A DNA stretch of 56,666 bases. Source: a virus (Duplodnaviria; Caudoviricetes). Below are positions 94 through 56,666 of this stretch, piece by piece. Every line of letters starts with the position of its first letter. Positions within the stretch are counted from its first letter, which is position 1. The stretch is taken from IMG/VR virus record IMGVR_UViG_3300030098_004888, positions 1-56,666 of that record. One strand, given 5' to 3'. The notes below the pieces were generated by a model, which was not told where the DNA came from, did not search any database, and saw only the letters and a program-made list of their open reading frames with translations. The translations under genes were made by a program, and so were the position numbers.

Positions 94-94
94 A

Positions 95-355
95 ATGAAA
101 GTAAAAATTCAACAAAGAAGTGTATATCACAAGTTCGCTGAGGTAGAAATAGATGTACCTAAAGATATTAAAGAGGAAGACATCCAAGATTATCTGGATG
201 ATAATGAACATCTATATGTGGACAAGATAGATAAAGCGATAAGTAAAGCTAAATATGAATATGGGTTTGGATTAGGAGATGGAATGGAAGATGAAAGAGA
301 GGAAAGCGAATGGAGATATGAATGTGAGAAACTAGAGTTAGGTGGACATTTATAA
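95..355 (+). CDS. Small acidic early protein (cassette allele A, gene 1)
   Basis: 86 aa ORF, A-rich leader, packed with neighbours. Confidence 0.8.
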   Translation: MKVKIQQRSVYHKFAEVEIDVPKDIKEEDIQDYLDDNEHLYVDKIDKAISKAKYEYGFGLGDGMEDEREESEWRYECEKLELGGHL

Positions 356-373
356 TAACTAAAAACTAAAACT

Positions 374-529
374 ATGGGTAACTTAATAAAAGAAAAAGGA
401 TTAACACATAAAGAAGTTGTGGAGATTGTAAGATTGTGGTATACCAATGGAATGTATAAAGATATTTTACAAGATGAAGATGGAAAAGATTTAGAAGAAA
501 TATGTGAGGATATTTTATATAACAACTAA
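374..529 (+). CDS. Small early protein MGNLIKEKG...ILYNN (allele A, gene 2; not in ORF track)
   Basis: 51 aa ORF read by hand, preceded by AAAACTAAAACT. Confidence 0.75.
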   Translation: MGNLIKEKGLTHKEVVEIVRLWYTNGMYKDILQDEDGKDLEEICEDILYNN

Positions 530-539
530 AACTAAAACT

Positions 540-707
540 ATGAAAGAAAAAACATTATCAGAACTTCAAAAACTAAAAGATAGGTTAGCTTGGTATGATT
601 TATTTGTGGATTATATTTATGAAATAGATAGTAATAAATATAATGAAGCGTGTGAATATGCAGATAACAAAATCTTTGATGTAATTAAACCAACTAAAAC
701 TAAATAA
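540..707 (+). CDS. Small early protein (start revised to ATG 540)
   Basis: AAAACTAAAACT-ATG start; the second copy at 56600 begins at the same ATG. Confidence 0.8.
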   Translation: MKEKTLSELQKLKDRLAWYDLFVDYIYEIDSNKYNEACEYADNKIFDVIKPTKTK

Positions 708-2603: not shown

Positions 2604-3116
2604 ATGAAAACTATCAAGATTAAAGGGAAGGACTATGTTGAAGTGAATGAGAGAATTAAACACTTCAGAAAAAACTACCCAAACTTTTCACTATCATCAC
2701 GAATCGTTGAAATTGATGCAGAAACTTGCATTATTAAAGCAGAGATTAGAAACGAATCAGGTGATGTTGTAGCTACTGGTCATGCTCACGAAGAGAAGTC
2801 AGCAGGATATATTAACAAAACTTCTTTTGTTGAAAACTGCGAAACATCTGCTTGGGGTAGAGCATTGGGCAACTTTGGTATTGGTATTGATACTTCTATT
2901 GCTTCAGCAGATGAGGTTGATATTGCTATTAAAAAGCAAAACACTAAACCATCAGCAAATGGTGTAGATAAAAAAACAAAGCTAACAAAGAAACAATTTG
3001 ATGGCATGATGCAGTTTATAATTGATGGCAAGAAAGCACAAGTAATGAGTGCTATGAAGAAATATGATATGAGTAGTGAGCAATCTAAAGCAATAAACGA
3101 AGCATTACTTAAATGA
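2604..3116 (+). CDS. Putative single-strand annealing protein (Rad52/Sak-like)
   Basis: GKxYVxVxERI and ENCETSAWGRAL motifs; adjacent to exonuclease and SSB. Confidence 0.65.
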   Translation: MKTIKIKGKDYVEVNERIKHFRKNYPNFSLSSRIVEIDAETCIIKAEIRNESGDVVATGHAHEEKSAGYINKTSFVENCETSAWGRALGNFGIGIDTSIASADEVDIAIKKQNTKPSANGVDKKTKLTKKQFDGMMQFIIDGKKAQVMSAMKKYDMSSEQSKAINEALLK

Positions 3117-3254: not shown

Positions 3255-4016
3255 ATGGACTTAACAAAATTTATTAACAAGTTTGCTTGTGATGAAGCAT
3301 ACTACGGAGACCACGACTTTATAACTAACAGTCAAATGGGTCACTTAAAAAAGTCTCCACTAGCTTATCAAAAGTATAAAAAACATGGAATGCCTGATAC
3401 TAATGCTCTTATATTTGGTAGAGCATTTCACTGGGCAATACTAGAACCTGAAAAGTTTGAAGAGAAAACACACATATTTACTGGCAAGGTTAGGAGAGGT
3501 AAAGCTTGGGATGAGTTTAAAGAAGAGTATGATAAGGATGCTAATTGCATATTACTACAAAATGAATACGATGATTTAAAGTGTATGCAAGATGTTATAA
3601 TGAGTAATGCAGAATGTCAAGAACTATTATACGGTGGTAAAAACGAAGCAGTAAGTTGTTGGGAGGATGAAGATTCAGGGGTTTTTTGTAAAGGGAAAGC
3701 CGACAAAGTAAAAAAAGATTGTGTTATTGATTTGAAGACAACATCAAGTGGCGAGTTACACTCTTTTAAGGGGTCTGCTTATAAGTATGGTTATAACAGA
3801 CAGAGTGCGTTTTATATGGATGGTTTCAATAAAAACAAGTTTATATTTATTGTTATTGAAAAATCTTCTCCCTACAACTTATATATATATGATTGTAGTG
3901 ACCAGTTTGTAGAAAGTGGCAGAGAAGAATATAAATATCTACTGGATGTTTACAGAGAATATTTTATAGATGAAATTAAAGTACCTAGTCAATATTATTA
4001 CAAAGGATTATTATAA
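3255..4016 (+). CDS. PD-(D/E)XK exonuclease, RecE/exonuclease VIII-like (DUF3799-type)
   Basis: GRAFHxAILEP, KGKAD, IDLKTT, YxRQxAFY and IEK motifs. Confidence 0.85.
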   Translation: MDLTKFINKFACDEAYYGDHDFITNSQMGHLKKSPLAYQKYKKHGMPDTNALIFGRAFHWAILEPEKFEEKTHIFTGKVRRGKAWDEFKEEYDKDANCILLQNEYDDLKCMQDVIMSNAECQELLYGGKNEAVSCWEDEDSGVFCKGKADKVKKDCVIDLKTTSSGELHSFKGSAYKYGYNRQSAFYMDGFNKNKFIFIVIEKSSPYNLYIYDCSDQFVESGREEYKYLLDVYREYFIDEIKVPSQYYYKGLL

Positions 4017-4816: not shown

Positions 4817-4848
4817 GAGGGGTTGGTGACTTGCCCCTCTTTTTTTTT
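4817..4848 (+). terminator. Intrinsic terminator after SSB
   Basis: GAGGGG...CCCCTC stem followed by T9. Confidence 0.75.
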
Positions 4849-4856
4849 CTAAAACT

Positions 4857-6525: not shown

Positions 6526-6543
6526 TAACTAAAATTAAACACA

Positions 6544-7757: not shown

Positions 7758-8194
7758 ATAAAAAGGTTAGAAATGCAACTGTTTGCAGAAAAGATGGTAT
7801 AGAATTTAAATCTAAACTAGAACTATATACTTATACTAAGCTGAAACAGAGTAACTTAGGAGGGGAATATGAGAAACACAGATTTGATTTACTTGAAAAG
7901 TTTGAGTTTAAAGGAGAAAGTGTGGAAAAGCACAAGAAAAGAGGAGAGTATATATATGATAAAATTAGTAATAAGATTAGGGCAATAACATATACACCAG
8001 ATTTTGTTAACATAGATGATAGATGGATAATAGAGTGCAAAGGATATGCAAATGAACAGTTCCCATTAAGGTGGAAGTTGTTTAAAAAAATGATAAATGA
8101 CAATGGATTGGATTTTGATTTATACTTACCAACAAACCAAACACAAGTAGAAGAAACAATAAAATTAATTAATATTAAGAAACATGGTTCTTGA
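7721..8194 (+). CDS. DUF1064/endonuclease I-like nuclease (possible resolvase)
   Basis: DGIEFKSKLE...YTPDF...IIECKG. Confidence 0.8.
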   Translation: MPKRKYKRKKPINKKVRNATVCRKDGIEFKSKLELYTYTKLKQSNLGGEYEKHRFDLLEKFEFKGESVEKHKKRGEYIYDKISNKIRAITYTPDFVNIDDRWIIECKGYANEQFPLRWKLFKKMINDNGLDFDLYLPTNQTQVEETIKLINIKKHGS

Positions 8195-8209: not shown

Positions 8210-8626
8210 TTGGCCTTAAAAACCAAAAATAAAAAGTGTACTACATGCAAGAAAGTAAAGGAAGAAAAAGATTTTCCTAGGGGTACTCGTGGGGCTGTTT
8301 GTAAAGACTGTAAAAATAAATATGCCAGAAGAGTATATGACCCTGAAAAGCAAAGAGAAAAATTATATATAAGGAGATATGGTATTACCATTAAAGATTA
8401 TAACGAAATGTATATATCACAAGATGGAAAGTGTGCTATATGCAGAAAGGGAAAAACAATAAAAAATAATTTTTATGTTGACCATTGCCACAAAACAAAA
8501 AAGGTTAGGGGTTTGTTGTGTATGAGATGTAATTCTGGTATAGGTTATTTTAAAGATGATGAATCTTTAATGAAAAAAGCTATAGTGTATTTAAAAAACT
8601 CAACTAAAAATATAATTGTAAATTAG
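8210..8626 (+). CDS. Recombination endonuclease VII-family (His-Me) nuclease
   Basis: CxxC pairs, Q.GKCAIC, VDHCH, VRGLLCxxCN. Confidence 0.9.
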   Translation: MALKTKNKKCTTCKKVKEEKDFPRGTRGAVCKDCKNKYARRVYDPEKQREKLYIRRYGITIKDYNEMYISQDGKCAICRKGKTIKNNFYVDHCHKTKKVRGLLCMRCNSGIGYFKDDESLMKKAIVYLKNSTKNIIVN

Positions 8627-22100: not shown

Positions 22101-24989
22101 TACAGAGCCAGTTCCTGCATCTGATTGGTCTCTAAAGTTTGCATCTCCTTTATGCAAACCAAATCCAGTGCCAGGATTTTCAATTTCTATTACATCACTA
22201 AACTCATAAAAAATACCAGCTTCTTCTGAGGCTACAATATCTTTTTTAGGTCTATATATTTCAACAAGAGAGTTAAGATAAACATCTGCTGTTTTTCTGT
22301 TGTGTTGATGTCCAGCAAAACCATCATCATCTACATTAGGGGCTGTAGTTGAGCCTGTGTCTACAGAAGAAAAAGGTATTACATTGTCACTTCCACCAGA
22401 AATATTACCATGGTCCCTAAAAATATACCTAGAATCAAAAAACTTAATTCCTTCAGGGTCTGATATTTTAATATACCAACCAGCCAAAGTAGTTGTTTTT
22501 TCAGAAGCTTCGTTATCGTCATCTTCTCTTTTTATCATTGTTATGGTAGGGTTTGCTACATATTCAGCTATTTCAAAATCATAATATTTTTTAAAATATC
22601 TTCTATCTCTTTCATCTTGACCCCTATTAGTTCCTATTGGAGCATAAGCCCCTGTTGCATCTGCTGTATGTGGATTATCATTTGGGTTGTTAGGTGTTGC
22701 ATTTGGTTGCAAATTAGATAGAGCCTGGTCATCTATAGAGCTAGGAATTAAGTTTCCATCATCATCAAAAAATCTACCAGGTGAAATAAAACTAATAAAC
22801 CTAACTCTATCTCCTTTTGTAGCTTCAAAATCTATTATAGAGCCCTCGCTATCCGAATAAGACTTATGTTGAGATTCCTCATAAGTTGACTTCATGCTTC
22901 TTAATCCCAAATATATGTTTCCATTTGAATCTTTATATCTTCTAGATAATATGATTTGTACAAACTCCCCAACTGATGTATTTCCAGAATAAACCCATTG
23001 ATAATGAGTAGCCCAAGTTGGTGGATTGTGCATAATATGCCAGTACATACTTGCCTTACCTAAGTTATTGTTGCTATCTAAAGTAGTGCTTGAAGCAGCA
23101 GTTGTAGATGTGCTAGTTCTTTGTGTAGCTTCTCTATTAGAAGGAAACTCTACATAAGCAGATGAGTCTTTGCTTTTGTTAACTGTTGAAACTCTACCTG
23201 CTTTATCATAATATATTATTCCAAAATCATGGTAAGCTCCTGACTTAAAAGAACTTTGATGATAAGAGTCAGTGCTTTGAAACCACATTGAATTATTATA
23301 CATAAGAGAATGACCACTAAAAACCCCTGTTCCTGTTGGTGCAAAAATTATAGTAACATCATTAGCTGATGTTCCAGATGTAACAGTCCATGTGTCACTT
23401 TGAGCATTTAAAAGAGTAGCTAATGATGCTGCAACCTCAGCCAAAGTATCAAATGTTCCACCATCATGATTTTCTTTTGTTATATCTAGCTCTGCATGAA
23501 AAGCACAGTAATTAGTTCCATTACTTTCAGATATAGCTAAATCTATAACAACATAACCATATGATTTATGACTAACATTAATATTACTATTAGAAAAATA
23601 TGCTTCGTCACCACTTCCTGTTGCCCCCAATATAACAGAATTACTATTATGTTTAGGATTATGAATACCTGCTTTAAAAATAAGTCTTGTATCTCCTGCT
23701 GGGAAACTACCAAAAATAAAATTATTATTTATAGTTGCAAAATTTATAAAAGTATCATCGTGTACAGTAATTATAGGTAAATCTGATATTCCATCATAAA
23801 TAAAGTTTTCATAGTATGGCTGTAAGTTAACATTAAAATTATCTCCATCTGTAGAAGCTGGTGTTTCTGTTAGTGTTGGTATTAAGTCATACCCTTCAAC
23901 ATAATTACCAAACATTAACCTTTTGTTTATAATGTCCATTGATTGTGCTTTCAAAGGAACAGCATCAAATAACTTATCCCCATCTACAGGGTCTATAGCA
24001 GAATATAAACCAGAGCCATAAAACTCAATCGTTTGTGTTGATGGTGTTGCACCACTAGAGCTAAACCAAGATGATACATTTGGTATAACATCAATAAGTA
24101 AAAAAACTCCTTCATTCCTATCTCTAGCAGCTATTTCTATTTTTTTTACAGTATCTATTCCATTTGTAACAACAATATCTATTCTATTTTCAAATCTTGG
24201 GTCTCTAGCAGTTCCAAAAATTTTATGGTATCTATCATAGTTTGTAATAACAACATTACTTATTGGAGACCAAGCAGACCTTTCGTTATCGTCATATATG
24301 TAGCGATATTTAAATTGATAAAGCTTACCTCGTATATTATTACTATCTCTAGATTTATCGGTTTCAACAGAAGCTGTAGGCTTTGTTCTAGGTGCATGTT
24401 TTATAACATCTATATATATATCTCTTTCTGCTATAAGGTTGGTTGTATTAATGCCAATAGTTCCATCATTTAATCTTTCACTATAGCCATTAACATAATC
24501 ACCAGCAGAATGCAATATAGCTTTCTGAATATTTATTTTTCTTGGCTCGTTTAAATTATCTGTAAAATATAAAAGCTTTTGAGATTCAGTTAAATCTATT
24601 GAGTCTACATCTTTACTTGCTAGCTTTATAACCTTTGAGTGGGTTATTAAATTTTCTCTTGAAAATCCAAGAATTTCATTTTCTAAAACTTTTGTTATAG
24701 CATGAGTCATTCCATTATATTCAAGTATGGAGTGTTTTGCTTGGCTATTCCATACAAAATAATAAACAGTGCTATCTGAACTATGATGACAAGAGCCTAT
24801 AACTCTATTTGTTCCTGTAGGTAAAGTATAAGAAACAAGTAAATTACCTTCTGAATTTTGAATAGTCCCAACATCATCTGAATCACTAGACGTATTTCTT
24901 ATGTTAAGAGCATATCTATAATCTCCATTCTGTATAATTCTTTCATCTGAATCTCTATCTAAGCCTCCAGTAAATATTCTCTTATCCAT
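19116..24989 (-). CDS. Tail muzzle / stabilization protein (P22 gp10-like, crAss-like)
   Basis: N-terminal F.GG.D.D.DER....G.Y..ALNIR; FGNYVEGYD; YGI..NPES; FSE....W.SFYSY.P motifs; follows ring genes. Confidence 0.8.
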   Translation of the reverse strand: MDKRIFTGGLDRDSDERIIQNGDYRYALNIRNTSSDSDDVGTIQNSEGNLLVSYTLPTGTNRVIGSCHHSSDSTVYYFVWNSQAKHSILEYNGMTHAITKVLENEILGFSRENLITHSKVIKLASKDVDSIDLTESQKLLYFTDNLNEPRKINIQKAILHSAGDYVNGYSERLNDGTIGINTTNLIAERDIYIDVIKHAPRTKPTASVETDKSRDSNNIRGKLYQFKYRYIYDDNERSAWSPISNVVITNYDRYHKIFGTARDPRFENRIDIVVTNGIDTVKKIEIAARDRNEGVFLLIDVIPNVSSWFSSSGATPSTQTIEFYGSGLYSAIDPVDGDKLFDAVPLKAQSMDIINKRLMFGNYVEGYDLIPTLTETPASTDGDNFNVNLQPYYENFIYDGISDLPIITVHDDTFINFATINNNFIFGSFPAGDTRLIFKAGIHNPKHNSNSVILGATGSGDEAYFSNSNINVSHKSYGYVVIDLAISESNGTNYCAFHAELDITKENHDGGTFDTLAEVAASLATLLNAQSDTWTVTSGTSANDVTIIFAPTGTGVFSGHSLMYNNSMWFQSTDSYHQSSFKSGAYHDFGIIYYDKAGRVSTVNKSKDSSAYVEFPSNREATQRTSTSTTAASSTTLDSNNNLGKASMYWHIMHNPPTWATHYQWVYSGNTSVGEFVQIILSRRYKDSNGNIYLGLRSMKSTYEESQHKSYSDSEGSIIDFEATKGDRVRFISFISPGRFFDDDGNLIPSSIDDQALSNLQPNATPNNPNDNPHTADATGAYAPIGTNRGQDERDRRYFKKYYDFEIAEYVANPTITMIKREDDDNEASEKTTTLAGWYIKISDPEGIKFFDSRYIFRDHGNISGGSDNVIPFSSVDTGSTTAPNVDDDGFAGHQHNRKTADVYLNSLVEIYRPKKDIVASEEAGIFYEFSDVIEIENPGTGFGLHKGDANFRDQSDAGTGSVTIQALSKLDLQTDLPGGYLMIETTNNDITLKVGDLVTISGISGTDNDYLEGNHVIACQTLDGGGHDRFVTYTWVGENFTTISSGAGTVIRPRQASGRFSKGDVYFKPRNQLMGGIQQVAPRHKYADPSFLYDYGVHLNLNPDEKRYRQQKRKHYVEDYNVNDFFTSNAYDKGRPHTYINFAEQKRREASITYSFPYTPNTNVNGLSNFNVSTANFRDYNIEFGSIQKIHGKEGFITLFQENKVSKVLVNKSIINSADGGTSIGLTRDILSEQQTYSGDYGICLNPESHANFGFRDYFIDIKRGAAIRLSMDGITKISDYNMVDYFRDKSNAYSELVNNLHIIGGYDPAYNEYIINFQTLNLVELSIHGGSFVENSDGERQLINVLTDEEGFGDPEKPGGQIDIPVRLVSTERGNGRLTKPAGTIAVNNGNTAVTGSGTTFTEQVEVGDYLYVQDSADFVGKVSAIGSNTGITLAANYTSPTSENLSGTNVVALKEEDLYAATSKGVSVDQRYDFERVIKDGEISVPEQTLKRAKQLDVKIPIDLKITPTSGATTLTGLINPTASTLELNPVGCGTTEVSAKRIVDRGNITEINNKLRSGTNWDKTAEEYSGRAPLLNAPLLGFDEDDNDYDGTSGGYVFPDKRRKELQITLGETLAFSEKTNKWSSFYSYKPDYMEYLNSSFLTFKKGKLYRHHQSIDFDGYQIPRNNFYGEQSVSRLHVVSNSAPSNNKTYYGIGLEGSHPWDVESLNTNLVSTTASILGQMAITESNGSFGENIKGVGTISTAVGDATVTGTNTEFTTSLVVGDKLRYENTELGEVAAITNDTSLELTQNATVALANIYCYSQSDFGELAEKEGMFYAAFKYANVEETTGSGNKGTNLFGLGNVSVTNGQTALTGINFDINLKVGDVVRYGDGAALIGTITAVTNATTAVLELAYTGPTLNNQFAYVDENPIIEGDTFKGYYLRTNLRCDERSKVELFATNYRFSPSELSNR

Positions 24990-28500: not shown

Positions 28501-29940
28501 TTATGATTTCTTAATTAACATGTATCTGTTAGCTGCGAAACCTTCAAATCCTCGTTCTGTTCTATAGTGAGATAGTAACTTATCTGTTGTATTTGTTTTG
28601 TTTTTCAATACAGCAGAACCAGTCAACCAGTGCTCCATTTCACGAGAATATCCAGGAACAGCTTTATATCTAATTCTCAAAGAAGGAATAGACTCTCCAG
28701 ACTTAGCATCTCTACGAGTATCCATAGGAATAATCATTCCATATCCTGGAAAATTAAATGAAGTAGCTCCTAGCAATTTAGGATGATTAAATAAATCATA
28801 AGTTTTCTTATGGAAAGTATAACCTCCACGAGTAAACGAATTAAATCCTAATTGAACAGCTACATCTTTACTGTTATTAAATGTTCCATAATTAGCACCA
28901 CCTGCTGATACAGCAGTTTGAGAAGCTAATAAATCATCAACATCTAAAGATAAATCAATACCAGCATAAAGAGCATTTTCTTTAGCACCACGATGCTTAT
29001 CTAAAGATTTAACTATTGCATCAAAATCAGCCATTGTGATTGAAGCAGCACCTAAATCCATTGACTGTCCTTTATTTTCAATAAAAGGTAATAGACCTTC
29101 TGTACCATTAAAAGTTGAATTTAAAGCTGCTGCATTACCATAAGAGTCAGTAACTGAAGTGTCATTTGTAACAGCTTCACCTACAACCATCATAATCTCA
29201 GCATAGTCTAAGAAACGCTTATAAGTATCTTGCTCACCTTTTAAATACCAAAGGAATCCAGAACCCATGTTTTCATTTTCTACTTTAAAGTACACTACGT
29301 TAGTAGCTTCAGAACCAGTAACTTCAAATGATTCTTTTAAAATCATTACAGTATTACTGTATTCATGTAAATCAGGAGAAATACCAGTTGGCTGAACACT
29401 ACCTTCAGCAAACATATTACCTACAATAGATGCTTCGTAATTTGTACTTGTAGAAAATGCTGTTTTAAATGTAGTTAAAGGATGAATAGAAATCTGATTA
29501 GCAGATAAAGATACACCACCTTCGTTTGCATTAATCCCAGCTACATAAACTAAAGTACCATCTTGAAGCATTAAAATATCACCATTTCTTACTGGGTGAG
29601 CTTCTGCTGTACCTCCTGATAAAGAACCAGATTGAACTGTTAAAATTTCATCAGTTTTAGCACCTGCTGCCGCAGCACTAGCAAATTGCACCGTAAGACT
29701 ATTGTGATAAAAAGCCTCTTCAAAGTGTTCAAAAGTTGTTTGAGTTGTTTCTTTTTTGTTTCCAAGCAATTCTAAGAGACCTGTAATACCTTGCTCTCCA
29801 TATCGCTTAATTAGCCTTTCGTCAACGTCTCTTACATGAATACTATTCGTAGTAAGGGAGCTAACGTAGCTATCTGTTGTTGCTTCACGAGTTGCTGTTG
29901 GTTTTAACACCATCCCAGAAGCTAAACTTACTGTTGCCAT
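28501..29940 (-). CDS. Major capsid protein
   Basis: 479 aa after scaffold; F.EGS.QP, ..VTGS.A, G.LWY, TEGL, LGF.SF.RGGY.F motifs. Confidence 0.85.
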   Translation of the reverse strand: MATVSLASGMVLKPTATREATTDSYVSSLTTNSIHVRDVDERLIKRYGEQGITGLLELLGNKKETTQTTFEHFEEAFYHNSLTVQFASAAAAGAKTDEILTVQSGSLSGGTAEAHPVRNGDILMLQDGTLVYVAGINANEGGVSLSANQISIHPLTTFKTAFSTSTNYEASIVGNMFAEGSVQPTGISPDLHEYSNTVMILKESFEVTGSEATNVVYFKVENENMGSGFLWYLKGEQDTYKRFLDYAEIMMVVGEAVTNDTSVTDSYGNAAALNSTFNGTEGLLPFIENKGQSMDLGAASITMADFDAIVKSLDKHRGAKENALYAGIDLSLDVDDLLASQTAVSAGGANYGTFNNSKDVAVQLGFNSFTRGGYTFHKKTYDLFNHPKLLGATSFNFPGYGMIIPMDTRRDAKSGESIPSLRIRYKAVPGYSREMEHWLTGSAVLKNKTNTTDKLLSHYRTERGFEGFAANRYMLIKKS

Positions 29941-35591: not shown

Positions 35592-35885
35592 TTATTTATT
35601 TGGCTTCTTGGCAAACCTTTCAATAGCCCCAGCTTTAAAGTCTTTTTCATTATCTTCTAAAGTTTCTTCAACTTCCCCATTTATCATTGCTTCTATTTTT
35701 TCAATTTCTAGTATTAATTCTTTAGCATCCATAAAGCATTCTTTTTTAGCTTTAAAAGCATTTCTTGCTTTATCGTCTTGCAGCTCATCATCAATAGGTT
35801 TGCTAACTTCTTCAGTTAAAAGTTTTACTGCATCTTTAGCAGAATTAATTAATTCTAGTAATCTATTCTCTGTATTTTTATCCAT
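35592..35885 (-). CDS. Possible terminase small subunit
   Basis: 97 aa helical protein immediately upstream of terL. Confidence 0.45.
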   Translation of the reverse strand: MDKNTENRLLELINSAKDAVKLLTEEVSKPIDDELQDDKARNAFKAKKECFMDAKELILEIEKIEAMINGEVEETLEDNEKDFKAGAIERFAKKPNK

Positions 35886-36453
35886 TATAAACAGCTAAAA
35901 CATCTTCATTCCTCATTCTCATTAACTCTTTTCCTTCTATATCCATTTTATATTCTGAGTTTTCACTAAATATAATTCTATCCCCTATTTTTGCTCCTTG
36001 TTCAATAAGCTCATTATTAGAATATCTTAATATGCCATGAAGCTCTTCGTCTTCTTGGTCTGGTTTTACCCATATGCCAGAATCTGTTTTGCATTTAGAT
36101 TCATCTTCTAAAACCTGCTCTACAAAAACCCAGTTATTTAACATAATTATTTTATTATTCCTTACAACTGCATATGCCATATTTTCTTGTATCCTGTATA
36201 TTAACTTATCTTCAATAAAGGTAAACCTATTTTCTTTTGTTGTTAAAAAATGATGGCAATATATTTTATCCCCAACTTTAACATTTTTAACATTTTTACT
36301 TACAGCATAAACTATTCCATGCTGCCTGGCATTTAATTCAGGATTGTATGTTGGATTTAAATAAATTTCTTTTCCATTTAAAAAAACAGTATCCTCATGT
36401 GTTTTTTCTACTTCTACTAAAATGTAATTAGATAGTGGCTGCATATTCTTCAA
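35878..36453 (-). CDS. GroES-like co-chaperonin (two GroES-type domains)
   Basis: MQPL.N.ILV, VKVGD.I, T.SGI, GD.IIF...SEY...IEG.EL..M. Confidence 0.7.
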   Translation of the reverse strand: MKNMQPLSNYILVEVEKTHEDTVFLNGKEIYLNPTYNPELNARQHGIVYAVSKNVKNVKVGDKIYCHHFLTTKENRFTFIEDKLIYRIQENMAYAVVRNNKIIMLNNWVFVEQVLEDESKCKTDSGIWVKPDQEDEELHGILRYSNNELIEQGAKIGDRIIFSENSEYKMDIEGKELMRMRNEDVLAVYNG

Positions 36454-49984: not shown

Positions 49985-50347
49985 ATGTATACACCCTTGG
50001 AAAGGGATTATCTTACACTGTATAGAAAGATAATAATATCCCTATCACATTTAAATGATATTAATCGCACACAGCTAGAATTTCTAATATTCCTATACAA
50101 TAAAGACTTTATTACTTGGAAAGAGGCATTTAAAGACTTCTACGCCTCTAATAAGTTCCTACATATACGAATACCTAGTTTAGAAAAGAAAGGGCTTCTA
50201 ACAAGCTATAAACCGTATTCTAAGCGGAAAGGGGAATCAAGAACATACTGTCTTACACAAAAGAGTAGACTGCTTGTAGCAAAAGTATACCGCATGATTG
50301 AGGGTAATGAGGACATACCTGATATTTATAAAAGGGGTGATATATGA
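49985..50347 (+). CDS. Winged-helix (MarR-like) DNA-binding protein
   Basis: LEFLIFLY...L..KG........Y.LT.K pattern. Confidence 0.6.
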   Translation: MYTPLERDYLTLYRKIIISLSHLNDINRTQLEFLIFLYNKDFITWKEAFKDFYASNKFLHIRIPSLEKKGLLTSYKPYSKRKGESRTYCLTQKSRLLVAKVYRMIEGNEDIPDIYKRGDI

Positions 50348-50560
50348 GTAGGAGTGGGGTTATGTATGTATTTATATTTTTTTTTGTGTTTACCTAAGTG
50401 TTTTTTTTCTTGGGGGTGGGTTTGGTTTATTCCGTTTTGCTTTTGTTGATTTTGGCAAAATCTATTTTTATTTTTTTGGGTTTCTAGTAACTATTAAAAC
50501 AACATTTTGAAAAATTCAAACTATTTTTTTTAGGGTTTTTAGTATTTTAGTTTTTGAAAC
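50348..50560. other. G/T-skewed non-coding tract at late-to-early boundary (possible genome end/packaging region)
   Basis: Long T runs, GGGGGTGGG, few C, no ORF. Confidence 0.4.
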
Positions 50561-50683
50561 CAAAGAAAAGGAACGAAGTAACACACGCCAAAAAATAAAC
50601 CTTTACAAATTAGCACAATTAAATTGTTGATAACTTTGTTAATAACTAGAGTAGATTTATTTTCTATTAACAACAAATTAACG

Positions 50684-50691
50684 TATATTTA
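50684..50691 (+). promoter_or_regulatory. Early promoter variant TATATTTA (CGTATATTTACAAT)
   Basis: Same 14-mer recurs at 51477-51490; DnaA-box-like 9-mers upstream. Confidence 0.6.
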
Positions 50692-50725
50692 CAATATTAT
50701 TAATATTAATTAAATTTATACAATT

Positions 50726-51229
50726 ATGAACACAAAAACACAAATTAAAAAAAGCAAAAAATTAGGGACAGTCCCTAAAAAACTTACTCCAAAAATGTCG
50801 CATTTTGTAAAAATGTTTGATGACATTTTAACGGGTAAAATGTCCAACGGCAAATTATCGGAGCAAGTAAGCGACATTATATTAAAAAATTCTAATGACG
50901 TTTTTTTGTTAGATGTTGCAAAGCATTTTTATCTAGATAGTGGTTATAATAGCCAAGCCGAAAAATTAAAAACTTTACGCAGAACAATAAACAGGGAATC
51001 AAAAAAATTATTTAACGATGATAAAATAAAAAATGCGATTTCGTTTAAATTGGTAAAGGGTGAAAATTTCAAAGAAAATAAAAACGATTTTTCCTTTAGC
51101 TATTCAAGTTTAGAAGTTAAAGAATCGGTTGTAAATCTTAATAAGTTAATCCAAAAAATTAGAGATAATAAATTAGATTTAACTGATGAGAATAAAAAAG
51201 AACTTTACGAATTGAGCAAAGGACTTTAA
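50726..51229 (+). CDS. First early gene, hypothetical
   Basis: 167 aa with own promoter and terminator; contains palindrome at 50762-50778. Confidence 0.75.
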   Translation: MNTKTQIKKSKKLGTVPKKLTPKMSHFVKMFDDILTGKMSNGKLSEQVSDIILKNSNDVFLLDVAKHFYLDSGYNSQAEKLKTLRRTINRESKKLFNDDKIKNAISFKLVKGENFKENKNDFSFSYSSLEVKESVVNLNKLIQKIRDNKLDLTDENKKELYELSKGL

Positions 51230-51248
51230 AAACTCAATCAAACATTTT

Positions 51249-51278
51249 AAAGGGGTGCAAATTGTACCCCTTTTTTTT
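51249..51278 (+). terminator. Intrinsic terminator
   Basis: GGGGTGCA/TGTACCCC stem plus T8. Confidence 0.85.
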
Positions 51279-51305
51279 GCCCTCGTCCTAGCCCAAAAAT
51301 TCAAA

Positions 51306-51441
51306 ATGATAGTGATATGATAGTGAACCAATGATAGTGAATATCCCTGCGTTCTAAAATTTTATCCCAATAATTTTGTTAGAAAATTCCCTGCATTTTA
51401 AAATTTTATCCCAATAATTTTGTTAATAACTTCCCTGCATT
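51306..51441. repeat. 3x ATGATAGTGA followed by a 44-bp tandem repeat (two units plus start of a third)
   Basis: 10-mers at 51306, 51317, 51331; TCCCTGC at 51344, 51388, 51432. Confidence 0.85.
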
Positions 51442-51531
51442 TCATTTGGGTTAATGTTAATTTGTTGTTAATTCTTCGTATATTTACAATATCATTAAAG
51501 CAAAAGCTATTTAATGATAGAAACAAAAAAA

Positions 51532-51549
51532 TTAGGGACTTGTCCCTAA
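51532..51549. promoter_or_regulatory. Palindrome TTAGGGAC-TT-GTCCCTAA
   Basis: Perfect arms, downstream of promoter 51479. Confidence 0.75.
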
Positions 51550-51577
51550 ACTATTAGAAACTAAAAACTAAAATAAA

Positions 51578-51838
51578 ATGTCTAAAATAGATTGGAGTAA
51601 ATTCAAAAATATTCAAGAGTTCTACGAATGGGAACGAGAGCAACAAAGAATTAAAAATAGTAAGCCAATAAATAGAGCTAAAAAAACTAGCGATGGTTGG
51701 TTTATTCCTGCGATGAATAGCAAAAGATATTCTTGTGAGATAAATAGACAATCATATAAAAAGATGACTACTCCAAGAATAAAAATGATGCAGAAAAAAG
51801 ATAGAATGCAAGAACGAAATATTAAAGTAAATTTCTAG
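51578..51838 (+). CDS. Small early protein
   Basis: 86 aa ORF. Confidence 0.65.
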   Translation: MSKIDWSKFKNIQEFYEWEREQQRIKNSKPINRAKKTSDGWFIPAMNSKRYSCEINRQSYKKMTTPRIKMMQKKDRMQERNIKVNF

Positions 51839-51883
51839 GGACTAATCCCTAAAATATATATTGTTTAACTTAAATTTAAAACT

Positions 51884-52039
51884 ATGAGCAGATTACAAAA
51901 AAGTTTATTTAACATCTTATGCCCAAGAGCAATACAACTATTTCAAATGTTGCATGAATTTGAATATATGAGATTATCTTCAAGTGGTAGAGAAACGCTT
52001 GACGAACTAGCAGAATTATTAACTAAACCAAATAGCTAA
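51884..52039 (+). CDS. Small early protein (51 aa, not in ORF track)
   Basis: AAAACT-ATG start. Confidence 0.7.
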   Translation: MSRLQKSLFNILCPRAIQLFQMLHEFEYMRLSSSGRETLDELAELLTKPNS

Positions 52040-52051
52040 AATTATATAACT

Positions 52052-52258
52052 ATGAAAAAATTACTTTTATTAAATATAGTATTTAATATACCTATGAGCA
52101 AACCTAAAAGAGTAACTAACTATGTATGGATAAAATACAAGAGTTATCAGAATTTCTTAAAAGGAAAAGCAATAGTATCAAAAAAAAGCATAGAGGATAT
52201 ATACTACAACAACTTTAAAGAAAATATGCCCAAAAACACATACTATAAAATTAACTAA
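52052..52258 (+). CDS. Small early protein
   Basis: 68 aa, AACT-ATG start. Confidence 0.65.
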   Translation: MKKLLLLNIVFNIPMSKPKRVTNYVWIKYKSYQNFLKGKAIVSKKSIEDIYYNNFKENMPKNTYYKIN

Positions 52259-52281
52259 TTATTAACTAAAACTAAAACAAA

Positions 52282-52902
52282 GTGGAAACAAAACAATTAA
52301 TTTATGAAATGCTAACTGAAAACACTGGTAAACACTTTTTAGATAGTGGTGGCGATGATAACAGATGGTGGCAGAGAAACCAAAAGAAAACACTACAAGA
52401 TTTTGAAGATGAAGAAGAAGAAACTATGCACAAAGATGGGGACTACTATTATAGAAATGTAAGTGTATTTCATTATTTAAGTCAGCTAGAATTAGATAAT
52501 ATATGTCGTGACTTCAACGAGCTAAACACAAATACAAAAGATTGGGAGGGTGAAGCTTATGGAGTATGTAAAACAGCTTGGAAATTCCTTAAAGTAGGTG
52601 GTAGAGGGTTTAGTTGTACCTCAGATTTCTTTGAGATTGAAGAAGGCAGAACATTTAACACGTACAACGGAGAAAGTGATTTAAGTCAAATACTACAAGG
52701 TACTTGGCTAACAATTAACGATGAAGAATATCTATTACTACAAATACACAATGGTTGTGATGCAAGAGGAGGATATACAGATGCAAAACTATTTAAAACA
52801 AGAGATGGATATGGTTTGATACACGAATACTTGCAAGAGTTTATGTATCAAGAAGAAATAGAAGAAGAATTAAAATATAGAGAAGAAACAATAACTAAAT
52901 AA
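52282..52902 (+). CDS. Conserved phage early protein
   Basis: ENTG.HFLDSGG, NTYN.E, QIH.G.D.RGGYT motifs. Confidence 0.8.
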   Translation: METKQLIYEMLTENTGKHFLDSGGDDNRWWQRNQKKTLQDFEDEEEETMHKDGDYYYRNVSVFHYLSQLELDNICRDFNELNTNTKDWEGEAYGVCKTAWKFLKVGGRGFSCTSDFFEIEEGRTFNTYNGESDLSQILQGTWLTINDEEYLLLQIHNGCDARGGYTDAKLFKTRDGYGLIHEYLQEFMYQEEIEEELKYREETITK

Positions 52903-52910
52903 TTAAAACT

Positions 52911-53138
52911 ATGAAGAAAATTTATCTACCATTACTCAAAGAACAAAAAGAACGTAAAGTTTTATTCTCATCTACTTTATCAAAGTATAAGTTTGAAACT
53001 GAAGAAGATAATAGGCACGAACTAGATGAGGAATTGTTCTTTAAAGATTGTGCAGAGTTCAGAAGAAGAAAAGAACTATTAAAAGATGACTCATTCTTTG
53101 ATGCATCTCACTTTAAATATAATATAATAAGGAGCTAA
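52911..53138 (+). CDS. Small early protein
   Basis: 75 aa, AAAACT-ATG. Confidence 0.75.
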   Translation: MKKIYLPLLKEQKERKVLFSSTLSKYKFETEEDNRHELDEELFFKDCAEFRRRKELLKDDSFFDASHFKYNIIRS

Positions 53139-53154
53139 TTAAAATTAAATCAAA

Positions 53155-53430
53155 ATGAAAGTAAATGAAAAGCAATTAGAAGTTATTAGGATATGTAGAA
53201 AATACATACCTAATTTTTATGTCAATAAGAAATTTGATATAATAGAATTAATTTTATCTAATCCCTCGTTCGTTGAAGATGCACTTGGCTTTACGCAGTT
53301 CGCACAAGAAAACAAAATGAGTGAAGAAGATATTGTACAAACTATTATACACGATATAGCAGGAATGATTAAAGATGATGAACATTTTTTACCAAGAGTA
53401 AATGGATATTCAAATCTAACTAAAGCATAG
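53155..53430 (+). CDS. Small early protein
   Basis: 91 aa ORF. Confidence 0.75.
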   Translation: MKVNEKQLEVIRICRKYIPNFYVNKKFDIIELILSNPSFVEDALGFTQFAQENKMSEEDIVQTIIHDIAGMIKDDEHFLPRVNGYSNLTKA

Positions 53431-53440
53431 CAAAAAAAAA

Positions 53441-53569
53441 ATGAGAGTAGAAGTAAAACCACAATTCATTTTAATAACTGACGTTATAAATGGATACCTA
53501 GTAAAAGAAAGATACATTGGCTACACTATTAATGAAGCCAAGAAAAGATTCAAGTATAAATACAAATAA
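53441..53569 (+). CDS. Small early protein (42 aa, not in ORF track)
   Basis: Hand-read MRVEVK...YIGYTINEAKKRF. Confidence 0.6.
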   Translation: MRVEVKPQFILITDVINGYLVKERYIGYTINEAKKRFKYKYK

Positions 53570-53711
53570 AGAGGTTAAAACCTTTACAAAGTAAGCGAAA
53601 TATAAGGGAGTTAATTATTTAAATAATTAAACACTTTGTAAGGGGGTTAATAGAGTGCCGAGAAAAAGACAACAAGGCAAATTGTCTACTGAATTTAACC
53701 ACCTCTTTTTT
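53568..53711 (+). ncRNA. Candidate structured RNA with possible pseudoknot
   Basis: Nested helices 53568-75/53701-08, 53581-92/53633-44, 53645-50/53695-700. Confidence 0.5.
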
Positions 53712-53716
53712 AAAAC

Positions 53717-53856
53717 AAAAAAAAGCATAATATGGGCTTGATACATTACGTTCCTTTCTGTGAGTTTGCTATTTCACTTCTTTGTGTAGCTGTTATGACG
53801 AACGAACGATTTTTTTTGAGGGGGGTTAAATAAACTATGTGTTATTTAATCCTAAC
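53717..53856 (-). ncRNA. Candidate antisense small RNA carrying CACAUAGUUUAUUUAA
   Basis: TACCTTTG at 53861-53868; G-U-containing stem plus U8 at 53717-53750. Confidence 0.5.
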
Positions 53857-53916
53857 AAGGCAAAGGTACACAAAATATTTTAATAAGTCAAGTGTTTAAC
53901 TAAAAAAACTAAAATT

Positions 53917-54114
53917 ATGGAAAATATTATTAAAGATTATGTTTTATACGATAGGGCAAACGATAGTTTGTTAAAATTTGATAATGGGGAGATAGTATTA
54001 TATGGGGATAAAAATGAGGCAATGGAAGATTGTTATGGTAACGAAGAAGTAATACAATTTGAAAATTTACCTAAAGACAAACAAAAAGAAATTATTAATC
54101 AATTAAATAAATAA
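53917..54114 (+). CDS. Small early protein
   Basis: 65 aa, AAAACTAAAATT-ATG. Confidence 0.75.
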   Translation: MENIIKDYVLYDRANDSLLKFDNGEIVLYGDKNEAMEDCYGNEEVIQFENLPKDKQKEIINQLNK

Positions 54115-54118
54115 AATT

Positions 54119-54382
54119 ATGGAAGTAAAAAACAAACAAGCAAGAGAAAACTTTATAAAATGGTATTTTAAAAGTTATTCAAAATCTATTATGGAAGATA
54201 TGATAGAAGAATTAGTTAATGAGGGAACAAGTAATTGGAGTTTTGAAGGACTATTAGAAATTGCACAAGATATACCAGATAATATAGCAAATGAATTAAA
54301 ATACTCTGATTATTTAGATGATGAAATGAGGGCAGATTTAGAGGCACAAGATTATGATGTGTTTGGAGAAAATAAAATATAA
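54119..54382 (+). CDS. Small acidic early protein
   Basis: 87 aa. Confidence 0.75.
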   Translation: MEVKNKQARENFIKWYFKSYSKSIMEDMIEELVNEGTSNWSFEGLLEIAQDIPDNIANELKYSDYLDDEMRADLEAQDYDVFGENKI

Positions 54383-54400
54383 ACTTAAATAAATAAAATT

Positions 54401-54865
54401 ATGGAAACAAAAACTTATGTATGGGAAACTTATTATGATGTGTATGCTTATATTCAAAATGAAATAGATTTTTTCAAAAGAGATAAACAAGAATTTCTTG
54501 TGAGTATATTAGGAGATGAAGAAAGAGAAACTGAAAGTGTAACAGATAAGGAAATAGAAGAACACTTTAACAATGACTATTATATAGGGGAATATCATTG
54601 GGAATATTTTATAGAGGATTTAGAGGAAGAGTTTAGACAACATATTGGTAAAACAATATATGTAGAGGGAAGAAATATAGGATGGAGAAATAGAAGTGGG
54701 CATAAAGAGTTTGAACTAAAGAGTGGAGAAGATATATTTAGAGAGATAGCCCCTGAATGTGATTTAACATATTACATAACAAAAGAAAAAGAGGGGGAGT
54801 ATGAAGTGAGAATAAGCCACCACGATAGCCCAATGGGAGAGTATTATAACATTAAAATTAAATAA
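54401..54865 (+). CDS. Early protein
   Basis: 154 aa; GWRNRSG and SHHD.P.GE motifs. Confidence 0.8.
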   Translation: METKTYVWETYYDVYAYIQNEIDFFKRDKQEFLVSILGDEERETESVTDKEIEEHFNNDYYIGEYHWEYFIEDLEEEFRQHIGKTIYVEGRNIGWRNRSGHKEFELKSGEDIFREIAPECDLTYYITKEKEGEYEVRISHHDSPMGEYYNIKIK

Positions 54866-54920
54866 AATGAAATTGTTGATAACTTTTTTGGGCTATTGAT
54901 AATTATATATGTAATATTAT

Positions 54921-54955
54921 TAACTTTGTATAAACAATTAGGGACTCGTCCCTAA
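54921..54955 (+). promoter_or_regulatory. Promoter TAACTTTG followed by palindrome TTAGGGAC-TC-GTCCCTAA (54938-54955)
   Basis: Consensus -7 element; palindrome 9 nt downstream. Confidence 0.75.
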
Positions 54956-54972
54956 AACTAAAAACTAAAACT

Positions 54973-55209
54973 ATGGAAGCAAATGAATTTAAAAGTGCAA
55001 TGGCTTTTGACAGATTAGAAACAAACGATTCTTATGATGTCTATTGGCTACATTCAGAAGATAATAATAGGATAGAACCAGATGACTTATATCATTGTGA
55101 GTATAACTTTGAAGATGCTTGTAAAGAGATAGTTCAGAATGGAGAACCTTATGTTAACTACCACTTTGATGATGAAACTATTGAAGAGTGGTTAGAGGAA
55201 GAAAACTAA
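54973..55209 (+). CDS. Small acidic early protein
   Basis: 78 aa, AAAACTAAAACT-ATG. Confidence 0.8.
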   Translation: MEANEFKSAMAFDRLETNDSYDVYWLHSEDNNRIEPDDLYHCEYNFEDACKEIVQNGEPYVNYHFDDETIEEWLEEEN

Positions 55210-55308
55210 CGATAGTCAGGTTGAGGTTAGGCTAAACCAACTTTGTAAAACTATACTATTTGGCGTGTATAGTTCCCTGCTTTTTATTAATTATTAAAAA
55301 CTAAAACT

Positions 55309-55458
55309 ATGAAAGAACTAAAATTAGATGAACAAGAATTAGATTATCTAACAATGGTGGTTGAACAAAATTTAGATGATGAACCAGAAGAATATGGAGA
55401 AAACCACAAACAAATGTTAGAGGACTTATATAGTAAACTAATAATCTTAAATAAATAA
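55309..55458 (+). CDS. Small early protein (49 aa, not in ORF track)
   Basis: AAAACTAAAACT-ATG. Confidence 0.75.
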   Translation: MKELKLDEQELDYLTMVVEQNLDDEPEEYGENHKQMLEDLYSKLIILNK

Positions 55459-55462
55459 AACT

Positions 55463-55594
55463 ATGGAAACAATCAAAGAGCTAAAAGAATTAGTATCTCT
55501 TTTTAAACACAGAAAACTATTTACCAACGATAGTATAATAATGGTTGGAGATTTAGAAAAATTAGAAGAATTAATAAATAAAATTAAAAACTAA
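55463..55594 (+). CDS. Small early protein (43 aa, not in ORF track)
   Basis: AAAACT-ATG. Confidence 0.7.
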   Translation: METIKELKELVSLFKHRKLFTNDSIIMVGDLEKLEELINKIKN

Positions 55595-55598
55595 AACT

Positions 55599-55760
55599 AT
55601 GGAAACAAAAAACAACAAACAAGAACATTCTTTATTTATAGAAGGAAGAATAGTAAAAGTAAAATGTACAAAAGAAGAATTAACAAAGTATATGCAAAAG
55701 ATAAAAGACAAATGTAAAGAATTAGAATCTTTACAAAGCTTTAAAGGAGAATTAATTTAA
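55599..55760 (+). CDS. Small early protein (53 aa, not in ORF track)
   Basis: AAAACTAAAACT-ATG. Confidence 0.7.
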   Translation: METKNNKQEHSLFIEGRIVKVKCTKEELTKYMQKIKDKCKELESLQSFKGELI

Positions 55761-55786
55761 CCTAATAATCTTAAATAAATAAAACT

Positions 55787-55975
55787 ATGGAAAAGAAAAT
55801 AACTTATGATGACACAAGAGATATAGCTATCAGATGTGTTGACAAACTAATAGAATTAGATATTTTATCCGAAGAAGAACACAACTTTGAATTACAAGAT
55901 TTAATACAAGATGAAATAAATAATGTATTAGGATTAGATATAGATGATAACTTTGAAATAACTATTAAAAAATAA
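55787..55975 (+). CDS. Small acidic early protein
   Basis: 62 aa, AAAACT-ATG. Confidence 0.75.
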   Translation: MEKKITYDDTRDIAIRCVDKLIELDILSEEEHNFELQDLIQDEINNVLGLDIDDNFEITIKK

Positions 55976-55979
55976 AACT

Positions 55980-56222
55980 ATGAGAATTAAAATAGAAGAT
56001 TACTTTGGTAATGAAATAATAGAATTAAATGTTAAAAAATTACATAACAACAAATATGAGGAAAACATTTTTCATAGAGAAGGGATTGATATAAAAGAAA
56101 CAGATGAATATAATATAGCAGATGTAGATGAGGATGAGAATGGTGAATATGTAAGAGTACAATTAACCACTCGTGGCTTTTCATCCCCTCTATCAACAGC
56201 AATATATAAACTAAATAAATAA
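55980..56222 (+). CDS. Small early protein
   Basis: 80 aa, AAAACT-ATG. Confidence 0.75.
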   Translation: MRIKIEDYFGNEIIELNVKKLHNNKYEENIFHREGIDIKETDEYNIADVDEDENGEYVRVQLTTRGFSSPLSTAIYKLNK

Positions 56223-56239
56223 ACTTAAAAAATAAAACT

Positions 56240-56443
56240 ATGGACTTAAAATCTTTATCAATGATTGCCCAAATGGGTAATGTAATGTTTGCTGACAACA
56301 GAAAAGACAGAACATCGTGGAAAGAACGCTTTGTATTTATGGCTAGTGGATTAGAAAAGCCACACGATTGGGACTTATTATCTTTAGAAGAAAAAGAAAG
56401 TAGGTTAAATAAAGCACTGGAACAAATAACTAAAACTAAATAA
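56240..56443 (+). CDS. Small early protein
   Basis: 67 aa; GL.KP.DW..LS.EEK..RL motif. Confidence 0.8.
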   Translation: MDLKSLSMIAQMGNVMFADNRKDRTSWKERFVFMASGLEKPHDWDLLSLEEKESRLNKALEQITKTK

Positions 56444-56445
56444 CT

Positions 56446-56595
56446 ATGGAAAGAAAAGAATTAATAGACAAAATTTTAAGTTTAGCAGGAGATGAATTTG
56501 AAACTAAAGAAGATTATATAAAATTAGCAAAAGAAACAACTGATGAGTTAGTTAAAAGATTAATTTACATTAACCAACAATTATTAAACAACTAA
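56446..56595 (+). CDS. Small early protein MERKELID...LLNN (cassette allele B; not in ORF track)
   Basis: 49 aa, TAAATAACT-ATG start. Confidence 0.75.
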   Translation: MERKELIDKILSLAGDEFETKEDYIKLAKETTDELVKRLIYINQQLLNN

Positions 56596-56666
56596 AACTA
56601 TGAAAGAAAAAACATTATCAGAACTTCAAAAACTAAAAGATAGGTTAGCTTGGTATGATTTATTTG
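56590..56666 (+). repeat. Exact copy of 530-606 (start of ORF 540-707)
   Basis: 77 bp identity reaching the contig end. Confidence 0.95.

Follow-up and report, generated by a model that had tools for sequence, protein, structure and literature searches.

Two co-existing gene alleles between W and X in a closed marine podophage genome and their probable exchange at a short repeated linker

The window analysed here, 56,666 nt in length and with a G+C content of 31%, is an entire IMG/VR phage record, which the database classes as 'linear' without end repeats and which CheckV rates as 93% complete. The two ends of the record carry the same flanks of a slot between two small genes, here called W and X, and each end holds a different insert in that slot. 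The genes and flanks, found by ORF calling and flank comparison, are:

56240..56443, + strand: gene W, left neighbour of the slot, an ORF of 67 aa
1..93, + strand: left flank again, formed by the 3' end of W, identical to 56351-56443
94..529, + strand: allele A of the slot, consisting of A1 and A2 joined by a linker at 356-373
95-355, + strand: A1, an ORF of 86 aa
374-529, + strand: A2, an ORF of 51 aa
56444..56589, + strand: allele B of the slot, one gene of 49 aa (ORF 56446-56595)
56590..56666, + strand: right flank, contig-end copy, made up of the linker AACTAAAACT and the first 22 codons of X, identical to 530-606
530..707, + strand: right flank (530-606) with the complete gene X (540-707, 55 aa), which borders the slot on its right

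A preliminary description of this DNA, made from its letters, reported identical flanks around differing inserts, and this was confirmed base for base. Positions 56351-56443 equal 1-93 (93/93, 100%) and 56590-56666 equal 530-606 (77/77, 100%), with 94-529 (436 bp, A) between the flanks at the start of the record versus 56444-56589 (146 bp, B) at its end. Exact matches of 93 and 77 bases at both ends are not due to chance, and within the record the flank and slot stretches show no long self-match other than these end repeats, the remaining matches being short and confined to linkers. The left flank corresponds to the last 31 codons and the stop codon of W, and the break follows directly 3' of this TAA stop (56441-56443), in ...AACTAAAACTAAATAA, just as had been described. 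The two alleles do share their ending, AACAACTAA, and before AACTATG allele A has one AACTAA unit more than B. The ORF listing agrees that A holds two genes (86 and 51 aa) and B a single gene of 49 aa, whose last codon and stop lie inside the right flank. The B protein, which had been called unrelated to those of A, gave no BLASTP alignment with A1 or A2 at E <= 100. Searches of PHROGs returned no family for W, A1, A2, B or X and their Pfam matches were sub-threshold only; of 20 early-region proteins scanned against PHROGs, 11 had no family and most others fell into unnamed families. In a collection of 5.8 billion protein clusters, A2 was found in 12 clusters and B in only 7.

The junctions of the slot carry copies of a short linker, which read as follows:

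56428..56448, + strand: left linker AACTAAAACTAAATAACTATG, containing the W stop and B start codons
78-97, + strand: left linker, A-end copy, AACTAAAACTAAATAAAATG
521..542, + strand: right linker, A end, AACAACTAAAACTAAAACTATG
56587-56602, + strand: right linker, B end, AACAACTAAAACTATG, one AACTAA unit shorter

The linker measures about 20-25 nt, is composed of AACTAA(A) units and AACT-ATG, and partly codes for protein ends. Its stop codon is used in either of two registers, the upstream protein ending in ...TKTK or ...NN, and the codons after the linker ATG are A-rich. Because the linker spans both a stop and a start codon, a crossover within it would stay in frame and swap whole genes without a scar. 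Further copies of the linker at 56428 are located at 692-729 (95% over 38 nt) and 1148-1176 (93%), with copy lengths of 29-38 nt; the 38-nt copies at 56428 and 692 enclose B together with X. Both AACTAAAACT and TAAAACTATG occur 16 times, all on the + strand and never on the - strand, and apart from one or two strays they cluster in two stretches, 51.8-56.6 kb and 1-4.9 kb. AACT immediately precedes the start codon in 19 of the 33 small early genes, compared with 0/26 other + strand genes and 0/23 - strand genes, and AACT-ATG is therefore not the general start context of this phage.

The linker also occurs beyond this genome. An exact 23-mer, ACTAAAACTAAATAACTATGGAA, was found in eight other IMG/VR contigs, always at a stop/start junction of unrelated genes; three of the eight have 38-40% G+C and only one has early genes in common with the window. 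The same 23-mer had no occurrence in 596 Gb of bacterial and archaeal genomes. Going by titles and abstract openings, none of the papers found on hypervariability, early genes or indels in Cellulophaga or Flavobacterium phages describes it. Sigma-70-like promoters were not enriched in the linker-bearing regions, with 28 in 50300-56666 (38.3 +/- 5.8 expected) and 28 in 1-5300 (32.0 +/- 6.4 expected), and no promoter-like site was detected at the W/A, W/B, A/X or B/X junctions with the sigma-70 consensus, which would miss a promoter of the Bacteroidota type. The junction linkers are A-rich and form no inverted repeat or hairpin at the slot. The palindrome TAGGGAC-N-GTCCCTA is present in five copies in the region (0.02 expected), all of them away from the swapped slot.

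The second copy of the left flank at 1-93 arises because the contig circles the genome once and overlaps itself. Logan contigs, which are assembled sequences and not raw reads, of four public marine runs were aligned to 55700-56666; X1 and X2 are possible source samples of the record, and X5 and X8 come from another study. Past 56666, contigs in all four runs add 85 letters and then a linker copy, and 85 is the length of window positions 607-691, after which a linker follows at 692. A single contig of X8 (record 28, 1563 nt) spans 56225-56666 and 1121 nt further, and one of X5 (record 21, 920 nt) covers 56414-56666 and then runs on. An independent JGI contig, L020, aligns unbroken from 56202 across the junction to window position 364. 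Therefore, the genome closes on itself, as a circle or a permuted concatemer, which bears out the circular contig proposed in the preliminary description. From flank arithmetic, the form with allele A measures about 56,350 bp and the form with allele B about 56,060 bp.

Both alleles were present in the possible source samples. In X1, a flank contig (55764-56443, depth 26.9, 0 differences) stops exactly at 56443, a 206-nt contig (56414-56619, depth 27.1) contains B and 30 nt of each flank, a further contig links 56443 to 56590 at depth 7.34, and the downstream contig has depth 30. The corresponding depths in X2 were 27.0 upstream, 31.1 for B, 6.96 for the second joining contig and 30.2 downstream. 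Of 419 words sampled from window 1-4000, the share found was 0.99 in X1, 0.98 in X2 and 0.88 in X8; allele A makes up 11% of this stretch and X8 lacks about 11% of its words. With shares this high, A must be present in both X1 and X2, and on the basis of these word shares the second joining contig (depth ~7) is most likely A. A and B thus co-exist in the same samples between identical flanks, B as the majority and A as the minority. X8 has no branch on either side of the slot and carries B alone, at contig level, and X5 branches at 56443 and not at 56590; contigs of X1, X2, X5 and X8 all cover B.

The earlier suggestion of co-existing variants forming a bubble is thereby matched in X1 and X2, where B and a second path lie between single, identical flanks. 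The flank coverage, which was expected to equal that of A and B together, is additive only roughly, since the sums of 34.4 and 38.1 compare with 27-30 for the flanks. The short B contig shares flank and linker words with many contigs, and the bin 56426-56458 sums to 115-132. Upstream of the slot, minority bases differ at two positions in X2 (55948 and 56132) and a divergent contig is present there at depth 5, and in these contig-level data A and B may reside on strains that also differ elsewhere.

When JGI metagenome contigs were scanned for a 22-base word taken from the left flank, two short contigs were retrieved, L020 and L021, in both of which W is 98.5% identical at the amino acid level. 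L021 contains a homologue of the gene at 55787, W, B (98.4% over 56217-56600; protein 100% identical), the linker and then the start of a different gene, of which 33 bases match window 1148-1180 at 97%. In L020 the 55787 homologue is followed by a cysteine-rich gene that is not in the window and then by W; next come a divergent version of A1, some 110 additional bases, A2 (100% aa identity), the linker and yet another gene. With W next to A in one contig and W next to B in the other, both alleles are natural and also occur beside different neighbours. Within IMG/VR, near relatives numbered 0 by exact flank words and 0 by the W protein, and a search with the exonuclease protein described below returned one distant locus only.

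Downstream of the slot, the genome encodes predicted proteins for homologous recombination and replication, and further along for structure:

2604..3116, + strand: probable single-strand annealing protein of the Rad52 superfamily, 170 aa (structure comparison, neighbourhood)
3255..4016, + strand: PDDEXK exonuclease, 253 aa (PF12684, E 1.4e-25; phrog_412 'exonuclease VIII', E 7.9e-52)
5206-6525: DnaB helicase
8210..8626, + strand: endonuclease VII-type junction resolvase, 138 aa (PF02945, E 9.7e-24)
28501-29940, - strand: SU10-type capsid protein

The 2604-3116 protein has 5256 relatives and a precomputed Pfam assignment, PF27148. Sequence comparison with PDB chains gave nothing meaningful (E 0.4). 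Its AF2 model has a mean pLDDT of 79, and the top Foldseek matches are Mgm101, RAD52 and 80alpha Sak (E 6e-4 to 1e-3, probability >=0.99, TM 0.3-0.4). VIA gave Z 8.6 for RAD52 over 80 residues and 7.7-8.0 over 92-94 residues, and Z 7-8 for dsRNA-binding domains, tied within 1 Z. Among cultured phages, it matches those of Lactobacillus, Pelagibacter and Bacillus (18 records), with no more than 74% of its length covered. The exonuclease gene lies 139 nt downstream, and the structural match together with this neighbour suggests that the protein is probably Rad52-like. The annealing protein and exonuclease pair named in the preliminary description thus stands firmly for the exonuclease (PF12684) and with moderate support for the annealing protein, given the TM values and the tied Z scores. 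Together with endonuclease VII, the two would form the phage's own predicted homologous-recombination kit. A Pfam scan of 66 proteins, with many of the small early genes outside it, detected no integrase, resolvase or transposase family.

Another product, 1957 aa long, carries crAss-type muzzle domains (E 1.2e-18), and the genome also encodes a DnaA-C helix-turn-helix protein and a Cpn10 domain. The capsid protein finds its best cultured matches in podophages of Flavobacterium and Cellulophaga (29% identity, 85 records). The runs that contain the record's DNA are marine, and the muzzle domains and capsid matches point to a host that is probably a marine member of the Bacteroidota. A search for prophages or hosts with the capsid protein against genome contigs gave 0 relatives, and DNA from 1-8000 matched cultured phages only in short DnaB stretches (6 records). 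Rfam families and tRNA genes were both 0.

The 170-aa protein was used as the marker for a wider comparison, in which an alignment of 34 of its 5256 relatives yielded 587 IMG/VR stretches and the best 80 loci were kept; the marker gene is thus carried by at least 587 IMG/VR contigs. Among the best 80 of the 587 loci, an exonuclease homologue occurs in 65, and in most of the loci listed it closely follows the marker. In the same 80, homologues of W (36-50% identity) occur in 7, of A1 in 11 and of X in 13, the last at varying positions among other small genes, and homologues of A2 and B in none. Over their 651,202 nt, AACTATG is present 224 times on the gene strand versus 27 times on the other. 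The orders of the small genes are permuted, with g710-g943-X in L033, g943-g710-X in L035, g710-g943-g1170-X in L044 and g55980-X-g1170 in L098, and the distance from W to A1 ranges from 0 in the window and L020 to ~200 nt in L025, ~1 kb in L047 and L051 and ~2.1 kb in L107. Related loci share single-gene DNA blocks at 82-89% identity that end near linkers, for example gene 710 (85% in L094), gene 55980 (85% in L067) and gene 55463 (89% in L069 and L070), and in the loci with these similar genes identity is 52-61% for the annealing protein and 43-51% for the exonuclease. Two loci found via X, L018 and L019, have a common block of 97.5% identity between replaced genes, with breaks at ...AAACTATG, and the A1 homologue of L018 is replaced by an unrelated 37-codon gene in L019.

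Break points were also counted across the family. For 64 loci whose sequence extends over 800 nt upstream of the marker, 351 distinct internal block ends (>=88% identity, >=150 nt) were compared with 300 randomisations; gene calls followed a simple ORF rule, and because the loci are related, their block ends do not count as independent. Within 10 nt of a gene start there were 115 of the 351 ends (expected 24.7 +/- 5.0, maximum 39), within 20 nt 215 (expected 48.0 +/- 6.6, maximum 66) and within 30 nt 239 (expected 71.0 +/- 7.6, maximum 96). A cruder test on whole loci placed 24 of 337 ends within 30 nt of an exact AACTATG (expected 9.7 +/- 3.1, maximum 20, 200 randomisations). Mosaic break points are thus concentrated at gene junctions across the family. 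The gene exchange at linkers that had been proposed from the window is supported by L020 and L021, by the L018/L019 pair, by the permuted orders and by the block ends. Most block ends in the whole-locus test lie away from the exact AACTATG word. An enrichment of block ends at junctions is also expected from selection for intact genes.

We propose, with a probability of roughly 0.7, that the record represents a closed podophage genome with a polymorphic W-X slot whose alleles are swapped by recombination at linkers. The record would comprise one turn plus 316 bases of an uncultured marine podophage's genome, which is circular or circularly permuted, and the assembler, going once round, would have crossed the slot twice, taking the minority haplotype A at the first crossing and the majority haplotype B at the second. 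The slot belongs to a run of about 33 small early genes joined by a region-specific linker, in which AACTAA(A) units supply the stop codon and are followed by AACT and then by ATG and A-rich codons. Since the linker reaches back into the final codons of one gene and forward into the opening codons of the next, a crossover in it would exchange complete genes in frame and scarlessly. The swap itself may take place by homologous recombination over 20-40-nt linkers between co-infecting relatives, with the phage's Rad52-like annealing protein, PDDEXK exonuclease and endonuclease VII as candidate agents. We infer that the position of the break points is set by homology of the linkers and not by selection alone.

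This last point is where the main competing explanation differs, namely that the alleles are real and arose by illegitimate joining at random sites, that selection kept the joins at gene boundaries and that the linker serves as a translation signal only. The linker does suit a stop/restart context, with its tight stop-start spacing and an A at -3 and -6, and most block ends are near gene starts, though few of those in the whole-locus test stand at the exact AACTATG word. However, both A/B breaks lie inside the common linker and the similarity extends 16-19 nt into the genes (95%, 1-109 versus 56351-56462), AACT-ATG is missing from 49 other genes of the phage, and the 23-mer joins unrelated genes in eight viral contigs and is absent from the cellular genomes. 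Block ends also peak within 10 nt of gene starts at several times the expected number. Random joining with selection therefore seems unlikely, with a small but real probability. Far less probable is a dedicated site-specific system, integron-like or shufflon-like, that recognises the linker and moves cassettes. The linker is short, repeated, oriented and specific to the region, and genes are permuted among relatives, as such a system would produce, but the 66 Pfam-scanned proteins, which leave out many small early genes, include no recombinase family of this kind, and the linker lacks an attC-like inverted repeat, extends over a stop and a start codon and does not keep a constant register.

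The remaining explanations concern the record itself. An assembly chimera, in which one end derives from a more distant phage that has linker words alone in common and the circle is false, could be favoured by linker words of at least 31 nt that are common to many contigs and can mislead assemblers, as illustrated by the many contig ends left loose in 56431-56466 and by depths that sum to 115-132 in that bin. The shared flanks of 93 and 77 nt, however, include coding sequence beyond the linker, the X1 contig 55764-56443 matches at 100%, the X8 contig continues through 56225-56666 for another 1121 nt, and L021 (W-B) and L020 (W-A) carry the alleles independently, which makes a chimera very improbable. 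Alternatively, both blocks might be in one molecule, as internally differing terminal repeats of a linear genome or as a tandem W..X duplication. IMG/VR does call the record linear without end repeats, and the contig itself has both blocks. Terminal repeats are copied from each other during replication or packaging and should be identical, which counts against this reading. Moreover, the contig ends exactly at the end of identity, as in a self-overlap, X8 has B unbranched and misses the share of 1-4000 words that A accounts for, and a second path at depth ~7 beside B at 27-31 in X1 and X2 is unexpected for one molecule. We consider the one-molecule reading barely credible.

A stronger version of recombination at linkers is that the early-region linker does more than join translation units and is a site set aside for exchange, in a gene-cassette system that works without an integrase in a very abundant marine phage family and in which the Rad52-like protein and the exonuclease recombine 20-40-nt sites at a high rate. 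This is speculative and on balance rather improbable. If true, excised single-gene circles might exist as intermediates, single genes would circulate among phages with ~50% core-protein identity and across groups of different G+C, and the A/B polymorphism would be one cassette exchange seen in progress within a natural population.

Phage gene shuffling at linkers is already known in other forms. In the reports on PeSLs, the promoter-early stem-loops of T4-type phages (Arbiol et al., 2010, PMC2839356; Comeau et al., 2014, PMC4122927), the hyperplastic regions have short motifs that recur between early genes which are small and mostly orphans; these motifs extend from the upstream stop to the downstream start and hold the break points of insertions, deletions and replacements between close relatives, and the exchange is ascribed to homologous recombination between motif copies. 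PeSLs are defined there by a strong sigma-70-like promoter and a stem-loop terminator. The linker resembles PeSLs in lying between small orphan genes of a hyperplastic early region and in holding break points (the A/B swap, L020/L021, L018 versus L019 and the block ends). Unlike PeSLs, the swap junctions are without a sigma-70-like promoter, in a scan for sigma-70 only, and without a stem-loop, and we therefore do not file the linker as a PeSL. It also differs in being only ~20-25 nt long and partly protein-coding, and the T4-type myoviruses contrast with a ~56-kb podophage that has a crAss-type muzzle protein. The linker would work like a PeSL, and it represents a promoter-less stop-to-start variant of known linker-mediated shuffling.

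Rad52-like phage recombinases have been reported to promote exchange over short or diverged homology and to give rise to mosaicism (De Paepe et al., 2014, PMC3945230). The present phage is similar in having a predicted annealing protein and an exonuclease beside the shuffled region and traces of homology at the borders of the pieces. That system concerns temperate coliphages, prophage remnants and longer diverged homologies, in contrast to the very short linker with dozens of copies per genome here. Integron cassettes depend on a tyrosine-recombinase integrase and attC-like repeats, neither of which was found among the 66 proteins scanned and the linkers inspected. In the modular theory of lambdoid phages, associated with Susskind and Botstein and, for HK620, with Clark et al. 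in 2001, short conserved intergenic sequences are reportedly the crossover points between modules; these modules are said to be usually multi-gene and the phages temperate. In contrast to them, the exchange units here are single genes of 40-90 codons. New in the present case are the linker sequence, the finding that it is confined to early genes and occurs throughout a large family of marine phages, and a swap caught as a within-sample polymorphism.

The slot offers a concrete, PCR-testable case of gene-cassette turnover within a natural phage population, and the early orphan genes that bear the linker are thought to serve host takeover and defence. It also makes testable the long-standing question of whether linkers guide recombination or selection tidies random joins. 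Furthermore, polymorphic slots conceal circular genomes from end-repeat tests, as in this record, which was called linear and 93% complete and yet is closed. The idea in the preliminary description that the 77-base overlap resembles an assembler k-mer leaves the 93-base left overlap unaccounted for. A single-base difference was considered as the cause of the latter and rejected, as the X1 contig is unbranched across 56351; L020 does differ from the window at the base corresponding to 56351.

Besides the slot that holds alleles A and B, a second polymorphic slot lies one gene further upstream, at the site of the window gene 55980-56222: the window and the metagenome contigs L020 (a close relative) and L021 differ here between the same neighbours. 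In contig L020 (232-444), which has the same neighbouring genes as the window, a small cysteine-rich gene takes the place of the window gene, and in contig L021 there is no gene between the neighbours that flank 55980-56222 in the window. Upstream of the early genes, at ~370-420, L021 also has a stretch with the T-loop motif GGTTCGATTCC that resembles a tRNA 3' half; no tRNA genes were found in the window.

A single assembler word length was considered as the cause of both overlaps that flank the A/B slot, but the overlaps differ in length (left, 93 bases; right, 77 bases), and one word length is therefore inadequate for both. At the first base of the overlap (window 1 / 56351), L020 has a mismatch to the window (its position ~591), but no branch was found at this base in the assembled contigs of the public marine run X1.

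The exact 23-base linker of the window phage (31% G+C), which contains the stop-AACT-ATG junction between small early genes, is also present in the IMG/VR contigs L023, L029 and L030, where it lies at the junction of two genes (position 2001 of each oriented locus). These contigs have almost no detectable homology to the window and their G+C content of 38-40% is clearly above that of the window phage.

The palindrome TAGGGAC-N(1-4)-GTCCCTA occurs five times in the window, against a chance expectation of 0.02:

2081-2096, palindrome copy
50763-50777, palindrome copy
51533-51548, palindrome copy
51836-51851, palindrome copy
54939-54954, palindrome copy

All five copies are located in the early region and most are embedded in TTAGGGAC..GTCCCTAA. 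Four of the five lie in intergenic gaps with a linker directly downstream. One possibility is that the palindromes form hairpins or serve as operator sites and in this way partition the early genes into units.

Three further genes were compared with Pfam:

19116-24989, minus strand, giant gene (1957 aa) with domains of the crAss-type muzzle protein, PF25731 (E 1.2e-18) and PF25729
9911-16243, minus strand, giant gene (2110 aa) without Pfam match
35878-36453, minus strand, gene for a 191-aa protein whose C-terminal domain is Cpn10 (GroES-like; E 2.2e-14)

Through its muzzle domains, the 1957-aa protein connects this marine phage with the crAss-like podophages of Bacteroidota. The Cpn10-domain gene has structural genes as neighbours, and its product may be a phage co-chaperonin.
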